A DNA stretch of 64,000 bases from an uncultured virus (IMG/VR IMGVR_UViG_3300027707_000912) (taxonomy: Duplodnaviria > Heunggongvirae > Uroviricota > Caudoviricetes). Positions 17,361 through 55,130 of this stretch are shown here, piece by piece. Under the pieces are notes generated by a model. That model was not told where the DNA came from. It did no database searches and saw only the letters and a program-made list of their open reading frames with translations. Both the position numbers and the translations under genes were made by a program. The stretch lies in the IMG/VR virus record IMGVR_UViG_3300027707_000912; one strand, written 5' to 3'. Within the stretch, counting starts at the first letter, position 1; each line of letters opens with the position of its first letter.

Positions 17361-18038
17361 ATGAAAATATCCGAATTACTTAACGAAGACTGGAACAAGG
17401 TCAACAAGAAAGACAAGACAGATGGTCTAAGTCAAAAAGCTGTCAATGCTTATCGCAGAGAGAATCCAGGCAGCAAATTAAAAACTGCTGTTACTACCAA
17501 ACCTAGTAAATTAAAAGCTGGTAGTAAAGCAGCCAAGCGCCGCAAGAGTTTTTGTGCTAGGATGGGCGGCAACAAAGGTCCTATGAAAAAGCCTAATGGT
17601 AAGCCTACTCCTAAAGCGTTGGCCTTACGCCGCTGGAACTGTGAAAGCATTGAACAAATGCAAGAGTTAATCATGTTAGGCGAAACACACATTGCAGAAT
17701 TGAAACAGAGACTGGATCCCAAATGCTGGAAGGGTAAACATAAAGAAGGCACCAAGATCAAAGGCGGTGTTCGTGTTAATAACTGTGTACCTAACGAAAG
17801 TGTATCGGAAAGCGAAAAAAAACGCTGTCTACAATGTGGTATGACTAACTGTAGCTGTAAACCAGGTACCTGTAAATGTAAACCTATTGCTGGTTGGGTT
17901 CCGGGCAAAGGATTTAAGAAAGCAATAGATGAAGCCGCCCTAGAAGAAAAATGGACACAGAAGTATAAGAGCTCAATCAACTGTGCTAGCCCTAAGGGAT
18001 TCTCTCAAAAGGCGCATTGTGCAGGTAAGAAAAAATGA
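17361..18038 (+). CDS. basic Cys-rich modular putative internal virion polyprotein
   Basis: MKISELLNE leader; four Lys/Cys-rich modules separated by Glu-rich linkers. Confidence 0.65.
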   Translation: MKISELLNEDWNKVNKKDKTDGLSQKAVNAYRRENPGSKLKTAVTTKPSKLKAGSKAAKRRKSFCARMGGNKGPMKKPNGKPTPKALALRRWNCESIEQMQELIMLGETHIAELKQRLDPKCWKGKHKEGTKIKGGVRVNNCVPNESVSESEKKRCLQCGMTNCSCKPGTCKCKPIAGWVPGKGFKKAIDEAALEEKWTQKYKSSINCASPKGFSQKAHCAGKKK

Positions 18039-32613: not shown

Positions 32614-33627
32614 ATGCAAATTAGAGAATTGTCAAAACCCATTACAAGCAAACAGCTTAACGAAAGCCTAGCACAGAAGTTTGGCTATAAGATTAACTTT
32701 GAGCAGTTTAGCGATGTACAATTAGAAGACGCACGTAACAAGTTGCGCACACGTTTAAGTCAAATGGAACTATCAGAAAGCTATGAATCTGTTCTTGAAA
32801 GCGCACAATATCAAAAAACACGTTTGATGCTAGATTGCATCAACCAAGCTATCCTAGAGCGTGATCAATTAGCAGAAAGCACTTGTTCAGAGTGTGATTG
32901 TAGCCCATGTGAATGCGACGAAGAGGAAGATAAAGAAGAAAAGCCTATGAAAACTAAAGCAAAAACAAACGAAAGCAACAACATCACAGCATTTATCCGT
33001 CACCGTGCTCGAAAGTCGGCAGTGCCAGATAGCTGGATTGACTCAGCACTTAGCAGAATGAGATTAGGCGAATCAGATACAGAAGAACTTAAGGCAGAAC
33101 TGTCATTACGTTATGACCTAAATGAAGCACAAGCAAGTTGGATCCTACTAGAAGGCGAAGAAACTAAAGCTGAAACTATTATGGCTACTAAAGATATGGT
33201 AGACCGTATTACAGGCTGGCTAGAAGATGTTGCGGCTATGAAAGCAGAACAGCTACTAGAACTATTAGACTCTATAAGAGAAACCCAAGGCAGTGACGTT
33301 GCACAACGTTACCAAGATTCAGTTAAGCCGGCTCTAGAGGCAATTTATACATCATTAGAAACAAGTCGTCAAGGCTTGTCAAGCGCATTAGCAATTGTAT
33401 CAGGTGGTGAGGCTCCTACAATGGGCACACCAGCAGGCGGAATGGGCGGGTTGCCAGGCGAAGAACCAGCAGGCGGACTACCAGAACTACCAATGCCACC
33501 AGCACCAGGCGGTGAGCCAGGCATGGACGAAGAAACACCAATGTCGGCAGAAGCAGGCAGAGAAAAGCGTGAGTCGGTAGACTACAGCCGTCGTTTAGGC
33601 ATGTTACTCAACTCAAAAAAAAAGTAA
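32614..33627 (+). CDS. acidic helical putative prohead core/scaffold-like protein
   Basis: TATAAATA upstream; Glu-rich; ends in A_AAA_AAG TAA. Confidence 0.55.
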   Translation: MQIRELSKPITSKQLNESLAQKFGYKINFEQFSDVQLEDARNKLRTRLSQMELSESYESVLESAQYQKTRLMLDCINQAILERDQLAESTCSECDCSPCECDEEEDKEEKPMKTKAKTNESNNITAFIRHRARKSAVPDSWIDSALSRMRLGESDTEELKAELSLRYDLNEAQASWILLEGEETKAETIMATKDMVDRITGWLEDVAAMKAEQLLELLDSIRETQGSDVAQRYQDSVKPALEAIYTSLETSRQGLSSALAIVSGGEAPTMGTPAGGMGGLPGEEPAGGLPELPMPPAPGGEPGMDEETPMSAEAGREKRESVDYSRRLGMLLNSKKK

Positions 33628-37188: not shown

Positions 37189-39534
37189 ATGAATAAAATT
37201 ACAGTTATAAAAAGAAACGGAAACAGAGAATCACTTGCAGTAGAGAAATGGCAAGCTCAAATAGCAAAAGTATGTGCAGGAATTGCAGATGTCAGTCAGA
37301 GTATGATTGAAATCAAAAGTCAACCGCATTTTTATGACGGCATAACAACACAAGAAATTGACGGAATTACACTTCGAGCAATAGTCGACCTTATCGACGT
37401 AGAATCAAATCCCGATGTAGGTCATACCAATTACCAATTTGTTGCAGGCAAACAACGATTATCAATGTTGAGAAAAGATGTGTATGGATCATATCAAGTT
37501 CCGCACCTTTATGAGATAGTGAAGACAAATGTTGCTACTGGATTGTATACTAACGAGCTATTAGAGTGGTACACAGAAGAAGACTGGAACCGAATGAACG
37601 ACATGCTCGAACACGAAAAAGACGAGCAATATGGTTATGCGGCCATTGAACAATTAATAGAGAAGTACTTGGTTAAAAATCGTAGTACAAAACAAACATA
37701 TGAAACTCCACAGATTAGATATATGGTTGCGGCGGCCACTGTGTTCCATAAAGAAGAACCTAACTCAGCTCGTATGCGATTTATCAAAGAGTATTACCAA
37801 GCGGCTTCAGACGGTCTCTTTACTCTTGCTACTCCTGTACTTGCTGGACTCGGCACTCCTACAAAGCAATTTTCGAGTTGTGTTCTTATACGTAGCGATG
37901 ATGACTTGGATAGTATATTTGCTTCAGGAGAAATGATGGCCAAGTATGCCAGCAAACGTGCTGGCATTGGCTTAGAGATTGGACGACTACGTCCACTAGG
38001 TAGTCCCATCCGTGGCGGAGAGATCATGCACACAGGTATGATACCATTCCTGAAGAAATGGTTTGGCGATTTGCGATCATGTTCACAAGGAGGTATCCGT
38101 AATGCTAGTGCTACTGTATTCTATCCTATTTGGCATCATCAGTTTGATGACCTTATTGTACTTAAGAACAACCAAGGAACAGAAGAAACCCGAGTCCGTC
38201 ATATGGATTATGGGGTTGTGCTTAGTGCCTTCTTCTGGAGAAGATTTAAAAACAAAGAAGACATAACATTCTTTGACCCCAATGAAGTACCAGATTTGTA
38301 TGAAGCGTTCTATCAAAATACAGAACGCTTCGAAGAGCTATATGTAAAATACGAAAAGCGTAAAGACCTACGCACTAAGACAATGAGTGCTGAAGAAGTA
38401 TTCAAGTCAGGCATATTAAAAGAGAGAACTGATACAGGTCGTATCTATTTGGTGTTCATTGACAATGTCATGAACCAAGGCCCATTTGATCCAGAGTACC
38501 ATACGATTTATCAAAGTAACTTGTGCTGTGAAATCCTATTACCAACTAAGTCATTCAAACGTCTTGATGATGCAGAGGGACGCATTGCGTTATGTACACT
38601 AGGATCTATCAATTGGGGTGCATTCCGTAACCCAGAAGACATGCGCCGTGCTTGCCGTATTCTACACCGTAGCCTTAACAACATACTTGATTATCAAGAC
38701 TTTCTAAGCATACAATCCAAACTAAGCAACGATGAAATCCGTCCACTAGGCATTGGCATCACAAATCTAGCCTACTGGCATGCCAAGCGTAGTTTAAAGT
38801 ACGGTGAGAAAGACGCACTGGGTGAAGTTAAATCTTGGATGGAGCATCAAGCATTTTACCTAACAGAAGCAAGTGTTGAGCTTGCTAAAGAACGAGGTGC
38901 TTGCTTGGGTTCTGAGCATACTCGTTATGGTAAAGGTACGTTCCCCTGGGAATTACGTGCCAAGGGTGTTAACGAGCTTGCAAACTTCACTCCCGAACTT
39001 GATTGGGAAACACTACGCACTAACATGAAAGAGTATGGAGTTCGCAATGCTACACAAATGGCTGTTGCCCCTGTTGAATCTAGTAGTGTTGTTATTAACA
39101 GTACTAATGGTATTGAAATGCCTATGAGTTTGATTAGTACTAAAGAATCAAAAGCAGGATCGTTTGTACAAGTAGTGCCAGAATACCATAAACTAAAAAA
39201 CAAATATCAGCTCATGTGGGAACAAAAAGATTGTGATGGTTATTTAAAGACTGCGGCAATCATTGCGGCGTATACCGACCAATCAATTAGCACTAACACA
39301 TTCTACAATCCAGCACACTGGGCAGATCGTAAAGTTCCAACTACATTGATTGCTAGAAACTTGATGCAAGCACACATGTGGGGATTGAAAACATTCTACT
39401 ATAGTTTGATTAACAAGCAAGGTAGTAAGGCAATTGCAGAACCAACACCCGAACAAACACATATAAATGGAGTTCAAGTAAACGGATTTCATTATGAAGA
39501 TTTAGAAGACGACTGTGAGGCATGTAAACTATGA
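37189..39534 (+). CDS. nrdA: ribonucleotide reductase class Ia alpha subunit
   Basis: ATP cone (VIKRNG), SSCVL, SNLCCEI, KTFYY, C-terminal CEAC. Confidence 0.97.
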   Translation: MNKITVIKRNGNRESLAVEKWQAQIAKVCAGIADVSQSMIEIKSQPHFYDGITTQEIDGITLRAIVDLIDVESNPDVGHTNYQFVAGKQRLSMLRKDVYGSYQVPHLYEIVKTNVATGLYTNELLEWYTEEDWNRMNDMLEHEKDEQYGYAAIEQLIEKYLVKNRSTKQTYETPQIRYMVAAATVFHKEEPNSARMRFIKEYYQAASDGLFTLATPVLAGLGTPTKQFSSCVLIRSDDDLDSIFASGEMMAKYASKRAGIGLEIGRLRPLGSPIRGGEIMHTGMIPFLKKWFGDLRSCSQGGIRNASATVFYPIWHHQFDDLIVLKNNQGTEETRVRHMDYGVVLSAFFWRRFKNKEDITFFDPNEVPDLYEAFYQNTERFEELYVKYEKRKDLRTKTMSAEEVFKSGILKERTDTGRIYLVFIDNVMNQGPFDPEYHTIYQSNLCCEILLPTKSFKRLDDAEGRIALCTLGSINWGAFRNPEDMRRACRILHRSLNNILDYQDFLSIQSKLSNDEIRPLGIGITNLAYWHAKRSLKYGEKDALGEVKSWMEHQAFYLTEASVELAKERGACLGSEHTRYGKGTFPWELRAKGVNELANFTPELDWETLRTNMKEYGVRNATQMAVAPVESSSVVINSTNGIEMPMSLISTKESKAGSFVQVVPEYHKLKNKYQLMWEQKDCDGYLKTAAIIAAYTDQSISTNTFYNPAHWADRKVPTTLIARNLMQAHMWGLKTFYYSLINKQGSKAIAEPTPEQTHINGVQVNGFHYEDLEDDCEACKL

Positions 39535-39917
39535 GTTATTCCGAAAAAGTTATTGACCATTATGAAAATCCAAGAAATGTAGGCTCATTTGCTAAAGATG
39601 ATCCTACCGTAGGCACAGGCATGGTAGGCGCCCCTGCTTGCGGTGATGTAATGAAACTACAGATAAAGGTAGACGATGATACAGGTATTATTACAGATGC
39701 AAAATTTAAAACGTATGGCTGCGGATCGGCTATCGCGAGTTCGAGCCTCGTTACAGAATGGCTCAAGGGAAAAACCCTCGACGAAGCCGGAACAATCAAA
39801 AACAAAGAAATAGCAGAAGAACTGGCTCTTCCTCCGGTTAAAATACATTGTAGTATATTGGCAGAAGATGCTATCAAGGCGGCAGTGAATGATTACCGTA
39901 ACCGACACAGCCAGTAA
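39531..39917 (+). CDS. iscU: Fe-S cluster scaffold
   Basis: GAPACGD, GCGSAIAS, LPPVKIHCS. Confidence 0.97.
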   Translation: MSYSEKVIDHYENPRNVGSFAKDDPTVGTGMVGAPACGDVMKLQIKVDDDTGIITDAKFKTYGCGSAIASSSLVTEWLKGKTLDEAGTIKNKEIAEELALPPVKIHCSILAEDAIKAAVNDYRNRHSQ

Positions 39918-40215
39918 CCGAATTAAACAAACATTAGCTAAACGTGGTAAGGGCGTTGGTATTAGGATTGGTGTGAAAACTACCGGTTGCTCTGGATTAG
40001 CTTATGTGTTAGAATATGTAGATAGTTACGAAGCCGAAGTAGGAGTGACTAATTTTGCACACGACGGGTTTGTTGTGCTAGTAGATGCCAAAAGTCTAGC
40101 CTATCTAGACGGGTTGACTATGGATTGGGTACGTAATGGACTTAATGAAGGCTTTGATTTTGTCAATCCTAACGAGCGTGACCGTTGCGGCTGTGGTGAA
40201 AGTTTTAGAGTATAG
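39889..40215 (+). CDS. iscA: A-type Fe-S carrier
   Basis: TTGCSGLAY, CGCGESF. Confidence 0.95.
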   Translation: MITVTDTASNRIKQTLAKRGKGVGIRIGVKTTGCSGLAYVLEYVDSYEAEVGVTNFAHDGFVVLVDAKSLAYLDGLTMDWVRNGLNEGFDFVNPNERDRCGCGESFRV

Positions 40216-40223
40216 GGATAATA

Positions 40224-40880
40224 ATGTTAGAAACTTGTTGTGATATTTTAGTAGACGCTTACAAGCGTAATTGGATTACTAGTAGAGATGGTAACATTTC
40301 TATACGCCATCATGACCGTGATCATTTTTATGTAACACCAAGTGGTGTGCGTAAACAACAGATGCAACCAGAGATGTTCAAGAAGATTAAAATCTGGAGA
40401 ACAATTAACAGTGGTGTTGGCAATGGTGCTTTTAACTATAATTGGGAAGTCATTGAACAAACAGACTTATCAGGCAACTTGGAACCTAGTGGTGAGATGC
40501 CTTTGCATTTTGGACTACAGAAAGAATTAGGACAGCACAAAGACGATGTGCGGGTAGTTGTACACGTTCATCCAACTTACTGCATTGCGGCCATGCATGC
40601 CGGCATCGACTTGGGCACTGTCAGTGATAGTTTTCCCGAACTTAATCGTTATACTAAAGTAGCATCTAATGTGGGAGACGTTGCTCCGATCAGTGAAGAA
40701 TTGGGCGAAGCGTGTCATCGTAACTTGGGACTTGACCGCGAAGGTAACATCAAGTTTGATATAGTAGGAATCAAAGGACACGGTGTAGTAGCCATTGGTA
40801 ACACTCCTTGGCGTGCCTATGAGCACATAGAAAGATTAGAACACATTTGCAAGATAGTACTTGCATCAGGAAAATATTAA
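40224..40880 (+). CDS. class II aldolase/adducin family protein
   Basis: DGNISIR, TPSG, PSGEMPLH, VVHVHP, GHG. Confidence 0.9.
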   Translation: MLETCCDILVDAYKRNWITSRDGNISIRHHDRDHFYVTPSGVRKQQMQPEMFKKIKIWRTINSGVGNGAFNYNWEVIEQTDLSGNLEPSGEMPLHFGLQKELGQHKDDVRVVVHVHPTYCIAAMHAGIDLGTVSDSFPELNRYTKVASNVGDVAPISEELGEACHRNLGLDREGNIKFDIVGIKGHGVVAIGNTPWRAYEHIERLEHICKIVLASGKY

Positions 40881-40881
40881 A

Positions 40882-41982
40882 ATGAGTAAACAACAATATA
40901 ATTTAACAACAAAGACAGACTATCTTAATCGCAAAATGTTTCTGGATCCTGCAGGTCCAGTAACCATACAACGATTCGAAGAAGTCAAGTATAAAAAGAT
41001 CGCAGATTTTGAAGCAACGGCACGTGGTTTCTTTTGGCAACCAGAAGAGATTAGCCTAACGAAAGATTCAAATGACTTTAAGGATGCCAGTGATGCGGTC
41101 AAGCACATCTTTACTAGCAACTTGCTACGCCAGACCGCATTAGATAGTTTACAGGGACGTGGCCCAAGCCAAATCTTTATGCCAGTAATTAGCTTGCCTG
41201 AACTAGAAGCATTAGTTTATAACTGGACGTTCTTTGAAACTAACATTCACAGCAAGAGTTATAGCCACATTATCCGTAACATCTACAATGTACCTAAGGA
41301 TGTGTTTAATACAATCCATGACACTAAAGAAATTGTAGAAATGGCTTCAAGCGTTGGCAACTACTACGAAGCATTACATATGGTCAACTGTCGTAAACAA
41401 CTAGGCGAAGCAGTTACTGAAAAAGAACATGTTAAAGCAATCTACCTGGCACTTCACGCCAGTTATGCTCTAGAAGCGTTCCGCTTTATGGTTAGCTTTG
41501 CTACAAGTTTGGCCATGGTAGAGAATAAAATCTTTATCGGTAATGGCAATATTATCAGTTTGATTCTACAAGACGAACTGCTACACAAGGGCTGGACTGC
41601 TTACTTGATCAATCAAGTGGTTAAAGAAGACCCCAGGTTCGCTGAAGCTCGAGACGAATGTCAAGCAGAAGTATATGCATTGTACATGGATGTCATTCGT
41701 GAAGAGAAGGACTGGGCAACTTATTTGTTTAACAAAGGACCAGTGATTGGTTTGAATGCTAATATTTTAAAAGACTTTGTGGACTATACAGCAGTGGGCG
41801 CACTTAAAGATATTGGCATCAAATACAATAACCCTGCTCCAAAGTCAACTCCTATTCCTTGGTTCAACAAACACGTTGATACCAGCAAGAAACAAACTGC
41901 ACTACAGGAAAGTGAATCAACCAATTACGTTATTGGAGTCATGGGTGATGCTATTGACTACAATGAGTTACCAGCATTATAA
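40882..41982 (+). CDS. nrdB: ribonucleotide reductase class Ia beta subunit
   Basis: FFWQPEE, ETNIHSKSY (radical Tyr), LEAFRF, DELLH. Confidence 0.97.
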   Translation: MSKQQYNLTTKTDYLNRKMFLDPAGPVTIQRFEEVKYKKIADFEATARGFFWQPEEISLTKDSNDFKDASDAVKHIFTSNLLRQTALDSLQGRGPSQIFMPVISLPELEALVYNWTFFETNIHSKSYSHIIRNIYNVPKDVFNTIHDTKEIVEMASSVGNYYEALHMVNCRKQLGEAVTEKEHVKAIYLALHASYALEAFRFMVSFATSLAMVENKIFIGNGNIISLILQDELLHKGWTAYLINQVVKEDPRFAEARDECQAEVYALYMDVIREEKDWATYLFNKGPVIGLNANILKDFVDYTAVGALKDIGIKYNNPAPKSTPIPWFNKHVDTSKKQTALQESESTNYVIGVMGDAIDYNELPAL

Positions 41983-46363: not shown

Positions 46364-46545
46364 CTGATGCTAAGTATAAAGTAGTAGTTATTCAGGAGTA
46401 TTTTTTGGATAATTACTTATTGTACCTCATAGGTTTGGGGTACCAAAAGCAGTGAGGCTTTTAACGCACAAGGAGATGTATCAGAGCCATATTTTATAAT
46501 GACGGAACTAGCGATTTCGTGATCCAGCGTAAAGGAGAAAAACAT

Positions 46546-47076
46546 ATGATACGCATTATCAAAACAATAGTCTTTATTTTAGCAATGGTGCTAGTAGGAC
46601 TAGCAGGGTATAAGGCAGTTAATTACAAACTGGATACCCTAAAAACAGCTCGCCAATATGCGAGTCCGGTTACAGCAGAATTAAGACAGAAACAACTAGA
46701 CTGTCTAGCTCGTAACATATACTATGAAGCAGGTTACGAACCTTTTGAAGGCAAGGTCGCAGTAGCCCAAGTTACAATCAACAGAGCAGAAAGTGGGCAA
46801 TTTCCCAGTGACATTTGCCAAGTAGTATACCAAAAGAATATAGTATACGAAAAAGTATTATGCCAGTTCAGCTGGTACTGTGAAACTGCAACATTAAAGA
46901 AACCAATGAATGGTGCAGTATACACAGAAAGTATGGAAGTAGCAAAGAAAGTTCTATTAGAGGGCTTTAGATTACCTTCCATTAAAAACGCACTTTACTT
47001 TCACGGGGACTATATCAATCCAAAGTGGAATAAAGAAAAAGTAGCTAAAGTTGGTCGACATATTTTTTACAAATGA
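46546..47076 (+). CDS. cell wall hydrolase (SleB/Hydrolase_2) with N-terminal TM
   Basis: CLARNIYYEA, AVAQVTINR, CQFSW, ALYFH, GRHIFY. Confidence 0.92.
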   Translation: MIRIIKTIVFILAMVLVGLAGYKAVNYKLDTLKTARQYASPVTAELRQKQLDCLARNIYYEAGYEPFEGKVAVAQVTINRAESGQFPSDICQVVYQKNIVYEKVLCQFSWYCETATLKKPMNGAVYTESMEVAKKVLLEGFRLPSIKNALYFHGDYINPKWNKEKVAKVGRHIFYK

Positions 47077-47084
47077 GGATTAAA

Positions 47085-47420
47085 ATGAATACATCACAAT
47101 TTAAGAAATATACACAGGATTTATTTAATTTAGATCTTTGGGTTAAAAACATTAAAGAACATGCACCGCAAATTAGTGCAGAAACCGCAGGATGGATTGC
47201 TGTAGTGCTATTGCACTTAGCAACAATCCCCACAATGATTGCTGTTATGACTGGATTAACAGAGAAAATGCCACCAGTTGACATGGTCTTGTTTAGCTGG
47301 CTAGGTTTGTTCTTATTTTTTGTTAAAGCAACAATTCAAAAGGATTTACTCAATATCGTAACAATCGGGCTTGGATTTTTTGTCCAAGCAAGTTTACTTG
47401 CTTTAATTGTGTTTAAGTAG
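47085..47420 (+). CDS. three-TM membrane protein
   Basis: three hydrophobic helices; follows hydrolase. Confidence 0.65.
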   Translation: MNTSQFKKYTQDLFNLDLWVKNIKEHAPQISAETAGWIAVVLLHLATIPTMIAVMTGLTEKMPPVDMVLFSWLGLFLFFVKATIQKDLLNIVTIGLGFFVQASLLALIVFK

Positions 47421-47508
47421 TCAAAAAGATTGTAAAGTGAAACCCTGTTAGTATATAATCAGCTAACAGGTGTTTTACTGATAAATATAAGATATTAAGG
47501 AGCATACA

Positions 47509-48084
47509 ATGCCATCAGGATTCCAACAAGATTCAAACCAATTACAACCAAACTTCTATAGAGTAGCGATCGATACTAGCTCAGCTACCTATTACCCAAC
47601 TGCTGACGGTAATACCAACGGTGGTATTACTTCAAACGGCTGGGACGCACTTGCAACTGCACCAACCACACTAGTCAAGGGTAAAGCCCGTGCTAGGGGT
47701 AATATGCGTTTCCGCAACATTATCAACGCCTTAACAGGATTAACCGACTGCCAGATTTTAGATGTTACTATGGCAGGCGAAACTGTAGGCGATGACCAAG
47801 CTACATCATGTACGTTCACAGTTAAATTTGAGCGCGATGCATACATTCCAACTACTGGAACTGATATTGCCGGTGGATCAATTACTACAAAAGCACTATA
47901 CGTTAAAAACACAGTTGCTAATGCAATTCGTCAAGAAACATCAGCTTCATGTAGAGTATATGATCCAACTACTGCTGAAGGTACACAACTAAGCCTTACA
48001 GTCTCAGCCGCCAGTACAGCTACCAATACACTTGGTACTGTTACTGTTTCATTAATTGATACTGTCACTGTAATTAACGCTTAA
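47509..48084 (+). CDS. putative structural protein
   Basis: TAAATA + AGGAG; Thr/Ala-rich. Confidence 0.6.
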   Translation: MPSGFQQDSNQLQPNFYRVAIDTSSATYYPTADGNTNGGITSNGWDALATAPTTLVKGKARARGNMRFRNIINALTGLTDCQILDVTMAGETVGDDQATSCTFTVKFERDAYIPTTGTDIAGGSITTKALYVKNTVANAIRQETSASCRVYDPTTAEGTQLSLTVSAASTATNTLGTVTVSLIDTVTVINA

Positions 48085-48086
48085 TA

Positions 48087-49292
48087 ATGATTTTAGCCTG
48101 GTTATTACTACTTACTGGTCTCACCATTTCTGTAGTCGCAATTTACTACTCTGTAGTAGGTTTGACTGCTATCTTTTCCGCGGCAGTCATTCCTATCATT
48201 GTAATGGGATCAGCCCTAGAGGTTGGCAAACTAGTATGTGCTAGCTGGCTTAAAGCCAATTGGGAACGTGCTCCTGCTTACATGAAGTATTACATGATTT
48301 TGGCAGTGGCTATTCTCATGCTTATTACTAGTATGGGTATTTTTGGATTCCTTTCCAAAGCACACAACGACCAAAATCTAGTCAGTGGTGATGTCCAAAG
48401 TAAGATTGCCATATACGACGAAAAAATTAAAACAGAACGAGAAAACATTGAAGCCAATCGTAAAGCACTCAAGCAAATGGATGCTACGATTGACGAAACG
48501 ATTGCTCGTAGTAAAACAGATCAAGGTGCTGTTAATGCCAATGCTATGCGTCAGCGACAGTCTAAAGAAAGAACTCAAATACAGGCTGACATTGCTAAAT
48601 CTCAAAAGTCAATTGTTGCCTTAAATGAAGAACGTTCTCCAATTGCCGCAGAAGTTCGAAAAGTAGAAGCTGAAGTAGGACCAATCAAATACATTGCCAA
48701 ATTCATCTACGGTGATCATGGCGCAGATGAAAACATGTTGGAAAAAGCAGTAACATGGATCATCATAATGATTGTTGTTGTATTTGATCCGTTAGCAGTT
48801 ATCATGTTGCTGGCCGCACAAATGACATTTGGCTGGCGTAAAGAAGAATCTAAAGATGGTGCATTACTAGTAGATAAAGATAATACTATAGTAGGCATTG
48901 TTCCTCCTATTATTCAAGAACCAAACACAGAAATTAAACAAACACACACAGAAGAAGTTCCAAGCGAAACACCGTCGACTGCACTAGGAGGTGATATAAC
49001 AGCGCCGGAGGAACCTGTAGAAGAAGTACCTACAGAGTCAGAGCTAGAAAAATGGAATACAATGATAGAAGAAGCTGAGAAAGCAGTTGAGGCTGAAAAA
49101 ATTGAAGCTGAACTTAATAGGGGTGAACACCTTTTAAAAGTAGAAGCCGATGCCCAACTACCTATTGCTAACGATACACCGGCAAAAACAATTTCACTAG
49201 CTGAACTATGGGGCCAGGAAGACGAGTCTAAAAAAAAGACTTACATGATCAAGAACCCGGACGGACAGTTGCAAGTGAAGACACGGGAGTAA
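48087..49292 (+). CDS. multi-TM coiled-coil membrane protein
   Basis: 3 N-terminal TMs, long coiled coil, VFDPLAV TM, acidic tail. Confidence 0.75.
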   Translation: MILAWLLLLTGLTISVVAIYYSVVGLTAIFSAAVIPIIVMGSALEVGKLVCASWLKANWERAPAYMKYYMILAVAILMLITSMGIFGFLSKAHNDQNLVSGDVQSKIAIYDEKIKTERENIEANRKALKQMDATIDETIARSKTDQGAVNANAMRQRQSKERTQIQADIAKSQKSIVALNEERSPIAAEVRKVEAEVGPIKYIAKFIYGDHGADENMLEKAVTWIIIMIVVVFDPLAVIMLLAAQMTFGWRKEESKDGALLVDKDNTIVGIVPPIIQEPNTEIKQTHTEEVPSETPSTALGGDITAPEEPVEEVPTESELEKWNTMIEEAEKAVEAEKIEAELNRGEHLLKVEADAQLPIANDTPAKTISLAELWGQEDESKKKTYMIKNPDGQLQVKTRE

Positions 49293-49579
49293 TAGGATAC
49301 GTACAAAATGCCGAGCAAGGTGCTGATACACTTTGGGCAAGAATACAAGATCGAAGTTCAGTTGATATATTCAAACCAATGGATCGTCTTTACATAGAGT
49401 TTGATAAAGATCGATTTGAAGGTATAGATGCATCACAGGAATTAGAGATAGATCGATTTATTAAAGCTATACAAGATGGTACACATAAGTTTGACGACTA
49501 TGGGCCATCAGACATCGAATACTTTGCAAGCAGGATATATGAACTTAGGAAAAATAACAGTAATAACACCGCCGGATAA
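49232..49579 (+). CDS. putative -1 frameshift alternative C-terminus of the 48087 gene (track ORF 49379..49579)
   Basis: -1 frame opens exactly at A_AAA_AAG (TAA just before), no start codon until 49379. Confidence 0.6.
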   Translation, partial: KKDLHDQEPGRTVASEDTGVIGYVQNAEQGADTLWARIQDRSSVDIFKPMDRLYIEFDKDRFEGIDASQELEIDRFIKAIQDGTHKFDDYGPSDIEYFASRIYELRKNNSNNTAG

Positions 49580-49955
49580 ACTATTCAATTTGAATTTAAG
49601 TTATCTGTTAGTTAAGCCATCGATATATGTAAAACAACAGTTTCAAGCAATATTGAGTAAAAGCATAGATGATTTAAACATATTCATGTACGAGCATGAA
49701 GAAACTGATATTAGTTGGATGTTAAGTGTTTCACAGCAGGTAGATGTGGTAATAGTAGATGTTGATAACTGTGATCCAATCACAAGACAGTTTATCACAT
49801 TTCTAATAGCACAACCAAATGCATACTATATAACTAGTGATGAAATTACACCATATAATTTAATTTCAAAAAACAGGATTTATAACCTGGACAGTATTGT
49901 TGAACAACTTACTGACCCAGAAGATGATGAGGACTCAGATGAATCAGAAGAGTAA
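49539..49955 (+). CDS. hypothetical phage protein
   Basis: AGGA RBS; VITPPD. Confidence 0.7.
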
Positions 49956-50169
49956 AGGTACAGGTATTACCGTTAGAGATAACGAGAATATTAATCAAGC
50001 ACTACGCCGTTTCAAACGTAAAGTTGAAGATGCAGGCATTTTAGACGACCTACGTGCGAAAGAGTTTTACGAGAAACCAACAACTGCTCGTAAACGTGCC
50101 AAAGGTGCGGCCAAAGCACGTTGGCGCAAGAAGCTCGAAAAAGAGAGTTTACCAAAGAAAATGTATTGA
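49939..50169 (+). CDS. rpsU: ribosomal protein bS21
   Basis: [27 protein letters not shown]. Confidence 0.93.
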
Positions 50170-50194
50170 CATTGCGTTATATCTGTGTTATACT
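50166..50194 (+). promoter_or_regulatory. sigma70-type promoter
   Basis: TTGACA-17nt-TATACT. Confidence 0.85.
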
Positions 50195-50222
50195 TTAAGT
50201 TCACAATAAAGAAAGAACTTAA

Positions 50223-50807
50223 ATGGCGAATACAGATGTAATGATCGATTTAGAAACTCTAAATACTACACCAGATTCAACTATCCTTACAATTGGTGCA
50301 GTAAAGTTTGATCCGTTTGGAAAAGAACTACAAGAACCTAAAATGGATAGTTTTTACTGTCGAGTAGATGTTGATAGCTGTGACAGGATTGGGTTAACAA
50401 CAAGTGACGATACCATTGCATGGTGGGCTCAACAAAGTAAAGAAGCGCAAGAAGCCGCTTTTGATCCCAATGATAGAATTGATATAGAAGAAGCATTTGC
50501 TCGCCTGTACAAATTCTGCTGGGGCGCAAAACGTGTTTGGAGTAATGGCAGTTGTTTTGACATTATCATTTGCGAACATGTTTTCCGTAAAATTAATCGT
50601 GCTGTTCCTTGGAAGTTTTGGGAAGTGCGTGATGTACGCACAGCATTTGATTTGGGTATCAATCCACTGCGTCCACCAGTTACAGCACACCATGCGTTAG
50701 AAGATGCGTGGAATCAAGCAGTAGGTATTCAAAATGTATACAACACATTGCGTACCAGTACAACTAGCGGTGGAACATACATCGCACCTTTTGCAAAGAC
50801 AAACTAA
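50223..50807 (+). CDS. DEDDh 3'-5' exonuclease (DexA/Rv2179c-like)
   Basis: MIDLETL, WSNG..FD, RDVRT, HHALEDA. Confidence 0.9.
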   Translation: MANTDVMIDLETLNTTPDSTILTIGAVKFDPFGKELQEPKMDSFYCRVDVDSCDRIGLTTSDDTIAWWAQQSKEAQEAAFDPNDRIDIEEAFARLYKFCWGAKRVWSNGSCFDIIICEHVFRKINRAVPWKFWEVRDVRTAFDLGINPLRPPVTAHHALEDAWNQAVGIQNVYNTLRTSTTSGGTYIAPFAKTN

Positions 50808-50808
50808 A

Positions 50809-51093
50809 ATGGAAACAAACAACAACGAAGTAATGGATATCCTCCAAGAGGAAGCCGCAGAAGTAATACAGGCAGTAAGTAAGATTCGTAGATTTGGCAT
50901 GGATAATGGAAAACATGGAACTAACCAAACTAACAAAGAGCATTTAGAAGAAGAACTGGGCGATATGTTAGCTATGATTGATATTCTAATGATTAACAAT
51001 GTTGTTAGTTGGAGTAGCTTACATGCGGCTAAACGTGCTAAAATAGAGAAGTTAAAAAAGTGGTCAAATATTCCTAATTTAGAGAATATCTGA
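50809..51093 (+). CDS. MazG-like nucleotide pyrophosphohydrolase
   Basis: QEEAAEVIQAVSK..EEELGD. Confidence 0.8.
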   Translation: METNNNEVMDILQEEAAEVIQAVSKIRRFGMDNGKHGTNQTNKEHLEEELGDMLAMIDILMINNVVSWSSLHAAKRAKIEKLKKWSNIPNLENI

Positions 51094-51105
51094 GATAAAT
51101 AAATT

Positions 51106-51160
51106 TGTAGAATGCCGTAAGGGTCTACATATTCTTGCTTAATTAAAGGAGAACAATATG
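51106..51160 (+). promoter_or_regulatory. ROSE-like RNA thermometer upstream of dnaK
   Basis: 5' hairpin, then TTCTTGCTT pairing with AAGGAGAA with bulged G. Confidence 0.7.
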
Positions 51161-53059
51161 AGCAAAATCATCGGTATCGATTTAGGTACAACAAATAGCT
51201 GTGTAGCAGTCCTAGAAAACGGAGTTGCTAAAGTAATTGAAAACAGCGAGGGCGCAAGAACAACGCCATCAATCATTGCATATACAAAGGACGACATCCT
51301 AGTAGGTGCAACAGCAAAACGACAAGCAGTCACAAACCCCAAAAATACAATCTACGCCAGCAAGCGCCTTATTGGTCGCAAGTTTGACGAAGCCGCAGTA
51401 CAAAAAGATATAGACTTAATGCCATATACTATTGTCAAGGCTGACAATGGCGATGCGTGGATTGAGGCTAACGGCGAAAAGCTAGCACCACAACAGGTGT
51501 CTGCTGAAGTACTTCGCAAAATGAAAAAGACTGCTGAAGACTATTTGGGCCACGAAGTAACACAAGCCGTTATTACTGTTCCGGCATATTTTAATGATAG
51601 CCAACGTCAAGCAACGAAAGATGCTGGACGCATTGCTGGCTTAGAAGTGTTGCGTATTATCAATGAGCCAACAGCGGCGGCATTGAGTTATGGGGTTGAT
51701 AAGACAGACAAGAAGGATCGCAAGATTGCAGTTTACGACTTAGGTGGTGGTACATTTGATATCTCCATTATTGAAATTGCCAACATCGATGGCGACAAAC
51801 AAATTGAAGTACTATCAACAAACGGTGATACATTCTTGGGCGGTGAAGACTTTGACCAAGTGTTAATGGATTACCTAGTTGCAGAATTTAAGAAAGATAA
51901 CGGCATTGATCTTAAACAAGACATGTTGGCTCTACAGCGTTTGAAAGAATCCGCTGAAAAAGCTAAGATTGAATTGTCTAGCACAACTAGCACAGCCGTT
52001 AACTTACCATACATTACCGCAGATGCTAGTGGTCCCAAGCACATGAATGTAACTATTAATCGTGCTAAGTTTGAATCAATGGTTGAAGAATTAATCAAAC
52101 GTTCAATTGAGCCATGTAAAATTGCTATGAAAGACGCAGGTGTTACTAATGCTGACATTGACGAAATTATTCTTGTTGGTGGCCAAACACGTATGCCTAA
52201 AGTACAAGAAGCAGTTGAAAAGTTCTTTGGTAAAGCACCACGTAAGGATGTTAATCCAGACGAAGCAGTTGCCGCAGGCGCCGCCATACAAGGTGCTGTG
52301 CTAGCTGGCGATAAGACAGATGTTCTATTACTAGACGTTACTCCATTGACACTAGGTATTGAAACAATGGGTGGTGTAATGACCAAGTTGATTAAAAAGA
52401 ATACAACTATTCCAACTAAGCATAGTCAAACATTTTCAACAGCGGACGACAATCAGCCAGCAGTTACTATCAAAGTGGCGCAGGGCGAACGTGAATTGTT
52501 TAAGTACAACAAATCGTTAGGTGAGTTTAATTTAGAAGGTATTGCTCCAGCACCGCGTGGCACACCGCAAATTGAAGTTACACTAGACATTGACGCAAAC
52601 GGTATTCTTAATGTAAGTGCCAAAGATAAAAACACTGGCAAAGAAAATAAGATTACTATCAAATCTGATTCTGGATTAACTGAAGCTGAAATTGAACGTA
52701 TGGTTCGTGAAGCTGAAGAAAATGCAGAGTCTGATAAAAAGGCTCGTGAGCTTATTGAAGCTCGTAATCAAGCCGATGCTCAACGTCATCAGTTCCAAAA
52801 GGACTTTGACGAAGTTAAAGACCAATTAACTGATGAAGAGAAGAGTAAGATTGAAGAAGCACTCACAGCAATGGACACAGCCCATGCAGGTGATGATGTG
52901 GAAGCAATCACAAAATCTGTACAGACACTTTTTGAATCAGCAACTCCTGTGTTTGAAAAGAAACAAGCCGCAGAGCAAGCCAAACAACAGGCTCCGCAAA
53001 CCGGTGAACAAACAGTAGATGCAAGCTTCACAGAAGTTGACTCTACAGAAAAAAAGTAA
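51158..53059 (+). CDS. dnaK: chaperone DnaK (Hsp70)
   Basis: [25 protein letters not shown]. Confidence 0.98.
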
Positions 53060-53071
53060 TATAATAACAAC

Positions 53072-53126
53072 GTAGGGTGCCTCCGGGGCCCTACAAATGT
53101 TCTTGCTAATAAGGAGATCTAAAATG
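53072..53126 (+). promoter_or_regulatory. ROSE-like RNA thermometer upstream of hsp20
   Basis: GC-rich 5' hairpin, then TCTTGCT-aata-AGGAGA. Confidence 0.75.
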
Positions 53127-53549
53127 ACACACCAATTAAGAACAATTGACACAGCCGCTCTAGCACAACTGAGCAAAGCACTAGTGGGATTTGATCGCTA
53201 TTTTACAGCGCCGCATCACCAAAATGGAAACTATCCTCCACATAACATCGTGAAGTATAGCGATACGCATTATGGTATCGAAGTAGCAGTAGCAGGTTTT
53301 AGTAAAGAAGAAATTACAGTAGAAGTTGACCAAGATCAACTCACCGTAAAAGGATGTAAACTAAATCAAGCAGATAGTCGTTTTGAATATCTACATCGTG
53401 GCTTAGCCGCTAGGGACTTTGAACAAACATTTACTCTTGCTGAGTATATGGAGGTTAAAGGAGCAGAAGTAAAGGATGGTATGCTTGTGATTGAAATTGA
53501 GCGTATTGTTCCAGATGCACTCAAACCTCGTACTATCGAAATTAAATAA
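53124..53549 (+). CDS. small heat shock protein (IbpA-like Hsp20)
   Basis: YPPHNI, AVAGF, YLHRGLAAR.F, DGML. Confidence 0.95.
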   Translation: MTHQLRTIDTAALAQLSKALVGFDRYFTAPHHQNGNYPPHNIVKYSDTHYGIEVAVAGFSKEEITVEVDQDQLTVKGCKLNQADSRFEYLHRGLAARDFEQTFTLAEYMEVKGAEVKDGMLVIEIERIVPDALKPRTIEIK

Positions 53550-53563
53550 GTGTAAATAAACCC

Positions 53564-53587
53564 GGGGGAGGCAACTCCCCCAATTTT
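53564..53587 (+). terminator. hairpin, probable terminator
   Basis: GGGGGAG-GCAA-CTCCCCC then AATTTT. Confidence 0.6.
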
Positions 53588-53602
53588 AAAAAAGAGATAA
53601 CA

Positions 53603-53905
53603 ATGGCTAGCACTGATATTCAACTAGAAGAAAAGATTAAAATTAAAGTATCCGAACCAAAAAATTGGAAGGTTATTTTACTCAACGATGATTCAACCCC
53701 CATGGAATTTGTAATCTCATTGCTAATTGAAATCTTCAAACATACTCATGAAACAGCCCAAGCGATTATGTTCCAAGTACACGAAACTGGCTCCGGCATA
53801 GCTGGAATCTATAGTTTTGAAATTGCTGAAGCTAAAGCAGTTGAAGCAACTAATCAAGCTAGAGCAAATGGCTATCCGTTACAAATTAAACTGGAAGAAG
53901 AATGA
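53603..53905 (+). CDS. clpS: Clp protease adaptor ClpS
   Basis: VILLNDDSTPMEFV, VHETG, YPL. Confidence 0.93.
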   Translation: MASTDIQLEEKIKIKVSEPKNWKVILLNDDSTPMEFVISLLIEIFKHTHETAQAIMFQVHETGSGIAGIYSFEIAEAKAVEATNQARANGYPLQIKLEEE

Positions 53906-54453
53906 GCTTAAAAGACCTTACACACGATGCACACAGAGACGCTGAGACTCAGCCCTTTGTAAAAATATTGTTTTCTGGAAACATTAATCCAGAGCTATAT
54001 GCAACATACTTAAAGAACCAACACCCAATGTATGAAGTGTTAGAAGTATGTGCGATGCCGCATCAGTTGTTACACGGTCTGCCTGATATTCGTAGAGCAC
54101 CTGCTATCTTAGCGGACTTTATTGAATTGTGGCCGCATGAAGACATGCCGGCTATGACACCAGCAGTTGAAGAATATACCAAGTATATTTTAAGTATTAA
54201 AGATGATCCTAAGAAATTAATGGCACACATATATGTACGGCACATGGGCGACCTTGCAGGCGGACAAATGATTGCTAAACGTGTTCCGGGTTCGGGTAAG
54301 TATTATCAATTTGAAAATCCAGATGTGTTAAAAGCCGCTATCCGAGAACGCATCAGCGATGACATGGCAGACGAAGCTAAAGTGTGTTTTGACTTTGCTA
54401 AACGTTTCTTTCAAGACATGATGCCTATTGTTAAGTTGTACGGAGATGTATGA
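53902..54453 (+). CDS. heme oxygenase
   Basis: T..AH..AE proximal His; AHIYVRHMGDLAGGQMI. Confidence 0.92.
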   Translation: MSLKDLTHDAHRDAETQPFVKILFSGNINPELYATYLKNQHPMYEVLEVCAMPHQLLHGLPDIRRAPAILADFIELWPHEDMPAMTPAVEEYTKYILSIKDDPKKLMAHIYVRHMGDLAGGQMIAKRVPGSGKYYQFENPDVLKAAIRERISDDMADEAKVCFDFAKRFFQDMMPIVKLYGDV

Positions 54454-55130
54454 GCAAGGTATGGGATACGTTAATAGAAATACAACATCTATTGGAGAAC
54501 AGTTTTGATAACACTGGCACAGAAGTATTTGAACCGGGTATGGATCGCTTTAATCAACCAGGGTGGATTAATCGCGTATGGACTTCTGATAGTTACCGCC
54601 GCGCTCACGTTGATGTTGTAGACGCAAGAGACTCTAAAGGATTATGGATGATGCATTGTTGCATCTTTCCACATACTCATAACCCTGCACCTATCTATGG
54701 ATTTGATGTTATAGCTGGTAAGAACAAGATTACCGGTTGTTTTCACGATTACTCAAAAGCAGGCGATGCTGACCATCCAATGATGGCGTGGTTCCATGAT
54801 GAAGTAGCCAAATTAGAATGGCGCAGAGAACGTGCTTTGCCTGAATGGGCTACTAACATATTCAGTGGTAGTATGGTGGCCGCGGGTAACGTACAAGATG
54901 AAGCAGAACTAGAACAAATTACAAATCTAGCTAAAACTACAGTAGCACACTATCTAAGCACAGTAGCGGAAACAAACAACACAGCTGAAGATACAACACT
55001 AGCACAGAACTATTATGCACAAAATCAGAAGTGCAACCCCCATACACCGCGTGTGATGGTTAGTTTGGGGCTAAGTGAGGACGATGTACAGCACTTCATT
55101 CAGGAATGTTTGTTCCCAGAAATCCGATAA
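54450..55130 (+). CDS. pcyX: ferredoxin-dependent bilin reductase (PcyX/PcyA-like)
   Basis: RRAHVD, MMHCCIFP, PIYGFDVIAG, LPEWA..IFS, Q..NPHT; coupled to heme oxygenase. Confidence 0.8.
   Translation: MSKVWDTLIEIQHLLENSFDNTGTEVFEPGMDRFNQPGWINRVWTSDSYRRAHVDVVDARDSKGLWMMHCCIFPHTHNPAPIYGFDVIAGKNKITGCFHDYSKAGDADHPMMAWFHDEVAKLEWRRERALPEWATNIFSGSMVAAGNVQDEAELEQITNLAKTTVAHYLSTVAETNNTAEDTTLAQNYYAQNQKCNPHTPRVMVSLGLSEDDVQHFIQECLFPEIR

Follow-up and report, generated by a model that had tools for sequence, protein, structure and literature searches.

Bacterial RNA polymerase, whose hybrid spans 9–10 bp, is described as slipping efficiently on nine A or T, and A_AAA_AAG as the most shift-prone ribosomal heptamer in Escherichia coli (PMC5009743, in its sections on these points). 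In tssM1 of Citrobacter rodentium, a run of 11 A gives rise to two length variants of an inner-membrane protein with about 20–25% slippage, and tssM3 of Yersinia pseudotuberculosis has the opposite configuration (PMC4256274, where it deals with these genes). Here we describe an A run near the 3′ end of a membrane-protein gene (48087..49292, plus strand; 401 amino acids (aa) in the list of open reading frames (ORFs)) in a 64,000-nucleotide (nt) stretch of DNA, hereafter the window, from an uncultured Caudoviricetes virus (IMG/VR record IMGVR_UViG_3300027707_000912). An earlier note on this DNA had proposed that one gene is given two alternative C-terminal tails by a one-base frame change at this run; the arrangement proves to be conserved in relatives, and we have little doubt that it represents genuine programmed recoding, whichever machine slips.

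The cassette, TCT AAA AAA AAG, occupies 49227..49238 (plus strand); its A8 run lies at 49230–49237, and the heptamer A_AAA_AAG at 49232–49238 is in phase with the 0 frame. Beyond the cassette the 0 frame continues for 17 codons, TYMIKNPDGQLQVKTRE plus stop (49239..49292, plus strand), which form a conserved peptide module, the short tail. The −1 frame is closed by a TAA at 49229–49231, directly before its opening, and then codes for the long tail (49232..49579, plus strand) in 115 sense codons (49232–49576) followed by a stop (49577–49579), with its first ATG at 49379; from composition, the chance of such a 115-codon open frame is estimated at approximately 4e-4. The predicted products comprise 401 aa (0 frame) and 497 aa (384 + 113, after a −1 shift). 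The heptamer and its phase, the TAA with some 115 open codons and no ATG until 49379, the 17 further codons and both product sizes had all been reported in the earlier note, and a check of the sequence agrees with each; its statement that both candidate sites encode SKKK was checked at the second site and also agrees.

We propose that the A run is a programmed slippage site held by selection. Most expression would read straight through to give a 401-aa protein ending in the short tail (TYMIK..GQ.Q.K.R.), whilst a fraction would shift one base to the −1 frame to give a protein of 497 aa that carries, instead of the short tail, a poorly conserved linker, a GYVQNAEQ..TLW motif and a small helical domain. 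The shift would arise mainly from RNA polymerase adding or dropping an A during transcription of the run, producing a mixed mRNA pool (A8, A9 and so on) that is then translated normally; a contribution from ribosomes slipping on A_AAA_AAG is possible, above all at the A8 variant of the window. Which machine slips, in what ratio the isoforms are made and what the protein does are matters of inference.

In several respects the locus resembles tssM1 and tssM3: a poly-A tract stands a few codons before a premature stop in the gene of an inner-membrane protein, the N-terminus is common to two variants, no Shine-Dalgarno (SD) sequence or hairpin lies nearby, and the product of recoding is the longer variant for one of the two genes but the shorter for the other; it differs in having 8–10 A rather than 11, in encoding a phage protein unrelated to that type VI secretion system component, and in that slippage was demonstrated there by mass spectrometry of reverse transcription PCR products together with reporters, whereas here it is deduced from comparison and one RNA contig (PMC4256274, as far as its account of the two genes extends). 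Thermus thermophilus dnaX (tau and gamma) likewise combines nine identical A/T bases with heterogeneous mRNA and a common N-terminus, and has the long form in frame, as do 12 of the unique junctions described below; it is, however, a cellular replication gene whose alternative frames simply terminate, in contrast to the two conserved tails found here (PMC5009743, in the part on this gene). E. coli dnaX and the IS3 family employ the same heptamer, in the phase seen in the window and most relatives, for a −1 shift into an overlapping frame, but E. coli dnaX makes use of an SD-like element upstream and a hairpin downstream, neither being conserved here, and the present run exceeds the heptamer and is kept in phases and variants without AAG (PMC5009743 and PMC4066793, in their descriptions of these elements). 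The tail assembly chaperones G/GT of long-tailed phages, which depend on a −1 frameshift, also share an N-terminus between a short and a long product encoded in overlapping frames, and are conserved across many phages, although they are chaperones rather than membrane/coiled-coil proteins, their slip sequence differs and the mechanism probably differs too (PMC5009743 and PMC10885494, within their treatment of G/GT).

Relatives were collected by a viral-contig search, from which 80 of 376 relatives of the gene and 80 of 91 relatives of the −1 tail were taken (160 loci). The strict cassette is present in 127 of these, the other 33 being truncated contigs or divergent variants, and the 127 collapse to 64 unique junctions (the strict set). 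A pooled set of 230 loci, with identical junctions counted once, provided 83 unique junctions with a run; of the remainder, five loci have the motif without a run and others have no motif in the available DNA or are duplicates. An A8 run by itself is not unusual, since the window has three runs of at least eight A and mononucleotide shuffles expect 5.3. In most relatives the cassette takes the form TCA AAA AAA AAG (A9); the 12 nt TC-A9-G are invariant in a 45-sequence subset, in which third codon positions nearby carry 1.2–1.8 bits, so that synonymous sites around the cassette are saturated, and the run starts with an A at the synonymous third position of a codon whose identity changes (TCA, CTA, CCA). 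The real signal is conservation, not the presence of eight A.

The short tail is kept in both length and sequence: its stop falls at codon 16–19 in all 64 strict-set junctions (codon 18 in 48), with the consensus K-T-Y-M-[IT]-K-[DN]-x-x-G-x-I-Q-x-K-x-R-x. Where the two tails overlap, variation follows the 0 frame with a period of three (position 3 carries 1.11 bits, versus about 0.6), and synonymous changes make up a share of 0.335 of the codon differences read in the 0 frame versus 0.107 in the −1 frame (62 sequences), the −1 frame being poorly conserved over this segment. In a clade that carries the long tail in frame, the short tail, there out of frame, shows a synonymous share of 0.286 versus 0.104 for the in-frame reading (11 sequences). 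One further locus (L127:2928-3000) keeps the TCA-A9-G-ACT cassette with a 0 frame that stops one codon later (..SKKKT*); its −1 tail is without the YVQNAEQ motif, yet the helical domain is present.

Past the overlap, conservation passes to the −1 frame. The motif GYVQNAEQ..TLW (49295..49336, plus strand) starts one codon beyond the 0-frame stop in the window, and Y[VI]QN.EQ is found in the −1 frame 1–3 codons beyond that stop in 64/64 unique junctions. The alignment for which the earlier note had called places invariant columns ahead of the ATG at 49379; invariant positions of the long tail are Y23, Q25, N26, E28, Q29 and W35, and mean column identity over 50 long tails is 57%. An ATG, GTG or TTG occurs between run and motif in 1/64 junctions, and the −1 codon spanning the 0-frame stop is ATA, GTA, TTA or CTA in 63/64. 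The Met at 49379, downstream of the motif, is peculiar to the window, relatives carrying K, I or R. Because the motif precedes this non-conserved ATG and potential starts before it are confined to that single junction, independent initiation is excluded for practical purposes. Taken together, the substitution patterns indicate that both tails are under selection at the protein level.

Run length is conserved: among the 83 pooled junctions it is A9 in 76, A8 in four, A10 in two and A7 in one, and in the strict set A9 in 61, T+A8 in two (the clade of the window, and L012) and A10 in one. Phase and configuration are more diverse. The commonest class, in which A9 is read as xxA AAA AAA AAG and the short tail is the in-frame one, accounts for 62 unique junctions; in 12 further A9 junctions it is the long tail that is in frame, the short one lying in the +1 frame, and two (L159, L160) are read as AAA AAA AAA G, which keeps the short tail in frame but contains no AAG codon. 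Two A8 junctions have the short tail in frame and two are single-frame forms; one A10 junction has the long tail in frame and the other, T-A10-C (L104), the short tail in frame, again with no AAG codon; the single A7 junction (L225) is doubtful. An in-phase A_AAA_AAG is accordingly confined to these 62 A9 junctions and the two A8 junctions that read into the short tail. What is conserved, on this evidence from sequence, is the length of the run, whilst reading phase and in-frame tail differ between clades. Within clades the configurations are stable, and only 1/64 strict-motif junctions (the A10) has the long tail in frame. The run is used across three phase and configuration classes (62, 12 and two junctions), with the short tail selected even in the +1 frame; because that out-of-frame tail is selected, expression in the long-in-frame clade must also shift the other way.

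In addition to the two-frame junctions, natural fusions occur. Distant relatives have the membrane protein and a C-terminal GYVQNAEQ..T[LI]W motif in one frame: one (L080) has a single-frame long form of 500 aa through T+A9 (T-A9-G), another (L092) carries the long tail in frame through A10, and L141, L146 and L149 are single open frames of 483, 463 and 534 codons, respectively. L151–L154 and L179 have the fused form without any run, that of L154 having 740 codons, and in L157 a short-tail-like module and the motif stand together in one frame. These in-frame fusions lend indirect support to the production of a trans-frame protein. As compared across these loci, site, both tails and fused protein are all conserved. 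The junctions of L157 and L236 read T/C-T-A8-GG, with a VTSWIERDG.QQIKK module and the GYVQNAEQ motif in one protein.

A second gene in the window carries the same cassette. TCA AAA AAA AAG TAA at 33613–33627, with its run at 33615–33623, forms the end of the gene 32614..33627, whose 337-aa product has no family, and a −1 ORF is open from there to 33956. The run is kept in 54/55 unique relatives (A9 in 49, A10 in five), followed by G in 45, C in four and T in five of the 54 junctions; the −1 frame in these relatives is open for 100–122 codons and conserved. Elsewhere, long A runs are scarce: five large relatives have 1–4 runs of at least nine A per genome, all on the strand of the membrane-protein gene, fewer than the ~12 per 350 kb expected from an estimate based on composition rather than shuffling. 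In one of these genomes (G002) the sole two such runs are the two cassettes, and in another (G003) the sole run is the membrane-gene site. Two further A runs were noted. The third A8 run of the window (GCG AAA AAA AAC GC, 17815–17822) lies inside the ORF 17361..18038, and the bS21 gene of a 367-kb relative (L238; G004:C1:210593-210602) holds an in-frame A10 run (..FKKKI..), at which slippage would truncate bS21.

The stimulators of the dnaX type suggested by the earlier note proved not to be conserved. The AGGAAG at 49216–49221, 10 nt before the heptamer, is present as stated but is peculiar to the window, SD-like tetramers occurring upstream in 7/64 unique relatives against a background of 8.5%. 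For a 3′ stem-loop or pseudoknot, RNAalifold returned 0 pairs (62 sequences, −20 to +85). Single-sequence folds were unremarkable, with mean z-scores of −0.36 for the 70 nt downstream and +0.04 upstream, and an upstream hairpin of the type seen in stem-loop-mediated slippage was not seen in them. A weak pairing of the YM codons with the YV codons, which recurs in these single-sequence folds, was rejected as it has no alignment support.

Assembled contigs from four sequencing runs, three of RNA (X12, X4, X16) and one of DNA (X7), were compared with the window. In X12, a contig of 757 nt (depth 15.8) covering 48601–49356 matches the window at every base but for an additional A in the run, by which the two frames are fused; the contigs of X4, X16 and X7 have A8. 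A9 is seen in one of three RNA-run contigs, and A8 in the DNA-run contig and in four separate viral contigs, all being assembled contigs, which hide minor variants. The extra A hints at slippage at the level of transcription.

Phase matters to a ribosomal heptamer but not to a polymerase that slips on a homopolymer, from which both longer and shorter runs result. We consider it probable, with some reserve, that the slipping machine is mainly RNA polymerase. This preference rests on the conservation of run length (A9 in 76/83), including a synonymous third-position A before differing codons; on the variation in phase and configuration and the retention of the run in variants without AAG; on selection of the short tail in the +1 frame, which would be possible from mRNAs one A shorter or two A longer; on the lack of a conserved SD-like or structural stimulator; on the second gene, which keeps the same cassette in 54/55 relatives; on the extra A of the X12 RNA contig; on the scarcity of A9 runs elsewhere in the genomes of relatives; and on published slippage on runs of nine A/T, with tssM1/tssM3 as precedent.

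Several observations weigh against polymerase slippage. The run of the window is only A8, below the 9–10 bp hybrid, and a perfect in-phase A_AAA_AAG is kept; 62/83 junctions, and the second site, are in exact phase for a ribosomal −1 shift with G next; and the fact that two genes have exactly the same TC-A9-G context hints that more than run length is required. The short tail of the long-in-frame clade could, in principle, also be read after a ribosomal shift of −2 on a long A run. X12 is a single assembled contig from one of three RNA runs, RNA libraries can contain DNA, and its extra A may reflect slippage during reverse transcription or a variant strain, the run being hypermutable.

The main alternative is programmed −1 ribosomal frameshifting, in which tandem tRNA-Lys would slip back one base on A_AAA_AAG at 49232–49238, as in E. 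coli dnaX and IS3-type elements, and the mRNA would remain faithful to the DNA. This heptamer, which is highly shift-prone in bacteria with a single tRNA-Lys (PMC5009743, where that case is treated), stands in the correct phase in the window, in 62/83 unique junctions and in 45/54 at the second site, and most relatives retain a G directly after the run. A ninth A would, by our reasoning, also let the E-site tRNA-Lys re-pair, and two of the three RNA-run contigs carry an unedited A8. Against such frameshifting, the upstream SD-like element is at background level (7/64) and no 3′ structure was found (0 pairs); the run is kept without an AAG codon in L104 (A10-C), in L159 and L160 (phase AAA AAA AAA G) and, with AAC or AAA instead, in 9/54 junctions of the second site; the 12 long-in-frame junctions would need a +1 or −2 shift to express their selected short tail; and one RNA contig has an extra A. 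We regard ribosomal frameshifting as the principal mechanism as possible, though on this balance doubtful.

Variation at the level of DNA is a much weaker candidate. Here the homopolymer would gain or lose an A at replication, so that subpopulations encode the short or the long form with no slippage in expression. Assembled DNA does contain both configurations: the main clade has A9 as well as A10 (L092), and T-A8-G (window) stands against T-A9-G (L080). The extra A of X12 could stem from such a variant. Yet configurations are clade-stable, with 1/64 strict junctions differing; every DNA copy of the window strain is A8 (L001–L004, X7); and the out-of-frame tail is selected as protein in both configurations, which is not expected if only rare variants expressed it. 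Phase variation of this kind is therefore very unlikely to account for the two tails. The absence of any recoding, with two ordinary genes (the second starting at ATG 49379 or by re-initiation at the 0-frame stop) or a sequencing error in one gene, would agree with the short form being all that gene callers report (matches of about 370–463 aa) and with the presence of that ATG in the window, but can be dismissed as highly improbable given that the most conserved −1 part lies upstream of 49379, that Met there is window-specific, that canonical starts before the motif (1/64) and at the stop-overlapping codon are nearly absent, that conservation extends to the 0-frame tail with its stop, and that the A8, whose possible origin as an assembly error had been raised in the earlier note, is reproduced in four separately assembled viral contigs (L001–L004) and the DNA-run contig X7.

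The shared part of the protein consists of transmembrane (TM) helices 1 and 2, a third TM helix leading into a coiled-coil hairpin, a fourth TM helix, an acidic disordered linker and SKKK, followed in the short isoform by the 17-residue tail. An AlphaFold2 model of a natural in-frame relative (L080) has the same order: two N-terminal TM helices, a third running into a long coiled-coil hairpin, then a fourth and a disordered acidic linker. In the modelled long tail, residues 1–32, including the invariant motif, are disordered (predicted local distance difference test (pLDDT) <50 at residues 6–32), which suggests that the motif may act as a short docking motif. Tail residues 47–110 form a small helical domain of ~65 aa (49370..49561, plus strand; helices 47–60, 71–82 and 92–110, pLDDT about 84), which neither L138-type relatives nor the distant clade possess. 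The next gene (49539..49955, plus strand) is read in the frame of the short isoform and begins within the last part of the long tail; in relatives, homologous N-termini of this gene follow directly after the long tail. It covers the last 13 long-tail codons (window 49539–49579), and part of the C-terminal conservation of the long tail may reflect dual coding with it.

Searches of Pfam, PHROGs and NCBIfam returned for the protein only sub-threshold tetraspanin/coiled-coil noise and matched neither tail, and the ESM Atlas gave hypothetical viral clusters only. Foldseek against the PDB found nothing at E≤0.001 for the full-length model (best E 0.087, generic coiled-coil hairpins) or for the long tail (best E 3.7). 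The gene order is conserved: p45971, a cell-wall hydrolase, a 115-aa multi-TM protein, p47509, the membrane gene, the next gene, bS21 and an exoribonuclease. In 74/76 loci (duplicates included) the hydrolase is present along with the TM protein, a small protein with three TM helices. From these two neighbours, the membrane-anchored coiled-coil hairpin protein may be part of a lysis or envelope module, and the upstream hydrolase and TM genes themselves may be a lysis module. In the window, 46519–48084, directly upstream, encodes an N-terminally membrane-anchored hydrolase (Pfam Hydrolase_2), the 115-aa multi-TM protein and a 191-aa protein, in the conserved order.

The phage occurs in freshwater metagenomes, the stretch being present in 20 runs, six of which are metatranscriptomes. 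The viral record containing the window has 73,389 bases (completeness estimated at ~20% by CheckV), and because near-complete relatives reach 345–367 kb we take it to derive from a jumbo phage; blastn against deposited phage genomes gave zero matches. It is tempting, if speculative and rather improbable, to imagine that these ~350-kb lake phages use stuttering of RNA polymerase as a standing expression device, with two unrelated genes sharing the same TC-A9-G cassette in genomes where A9 is otherwise rare, and the slip rate setting the ratio of isoforms (basic short tail versus GYVQNAEQ..TLW docking motif) and thereby tuning an envelope or lysis module, the polymerase perhaps being modified or phage-encoded. 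If true, an isoform ratio set by stuttering would resemble the holin/antiholin pairs made from one gene.

The device is known, whilst the gene family is undescribed: in the literature on jumbo-phage frameshifting and phage transcriptional slippage no paper on the family was found, and the word ‘frameshift’ is absent from a paper on bS21 phages (PMC9723584). New here are the classes of phase and configuration with selection on the out-of-frame tail, the quantified second cassette, the rarity of A9 runs elsewhere in the genomes and the RNA contig with an extra A. The protein falls into at least 8000 clusters (90% identity) at E≤1e-5, all hypothetical and of about 370–463 aa; a very common hypothetical phage protein is thus annotated as its short form only, and its C-terminal motif and domain are missing from databases or called as orphan ORFs. 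The family adds a case of two-isoform expression in phages that is neither a tail protein nor a transposase, and its short-in-frame, long-in-frame, single-frame and run-less forms amount to a natural experiment on poly-A recoding. Public metatranscriptomes contain the locus, so their reads offer a direct test between slippage by the polymerase and slippage by the ribosome.

No tRNA genes were found in the window. Downstream of the membrane gene lies a set of auxiliary genes (49897–55130) that includes 49897..50169, which we take from its sequence to be bS21, and 51158..53059, presumably DnaK from its sequence type, together with an Rv2179c-like 3′–5′ exoribonuclease, Hsp20, a heme oxygenase and a ferredoxin-dependent bilin reductase; a ribonucleotide reductase is encoded at 37189–41982.

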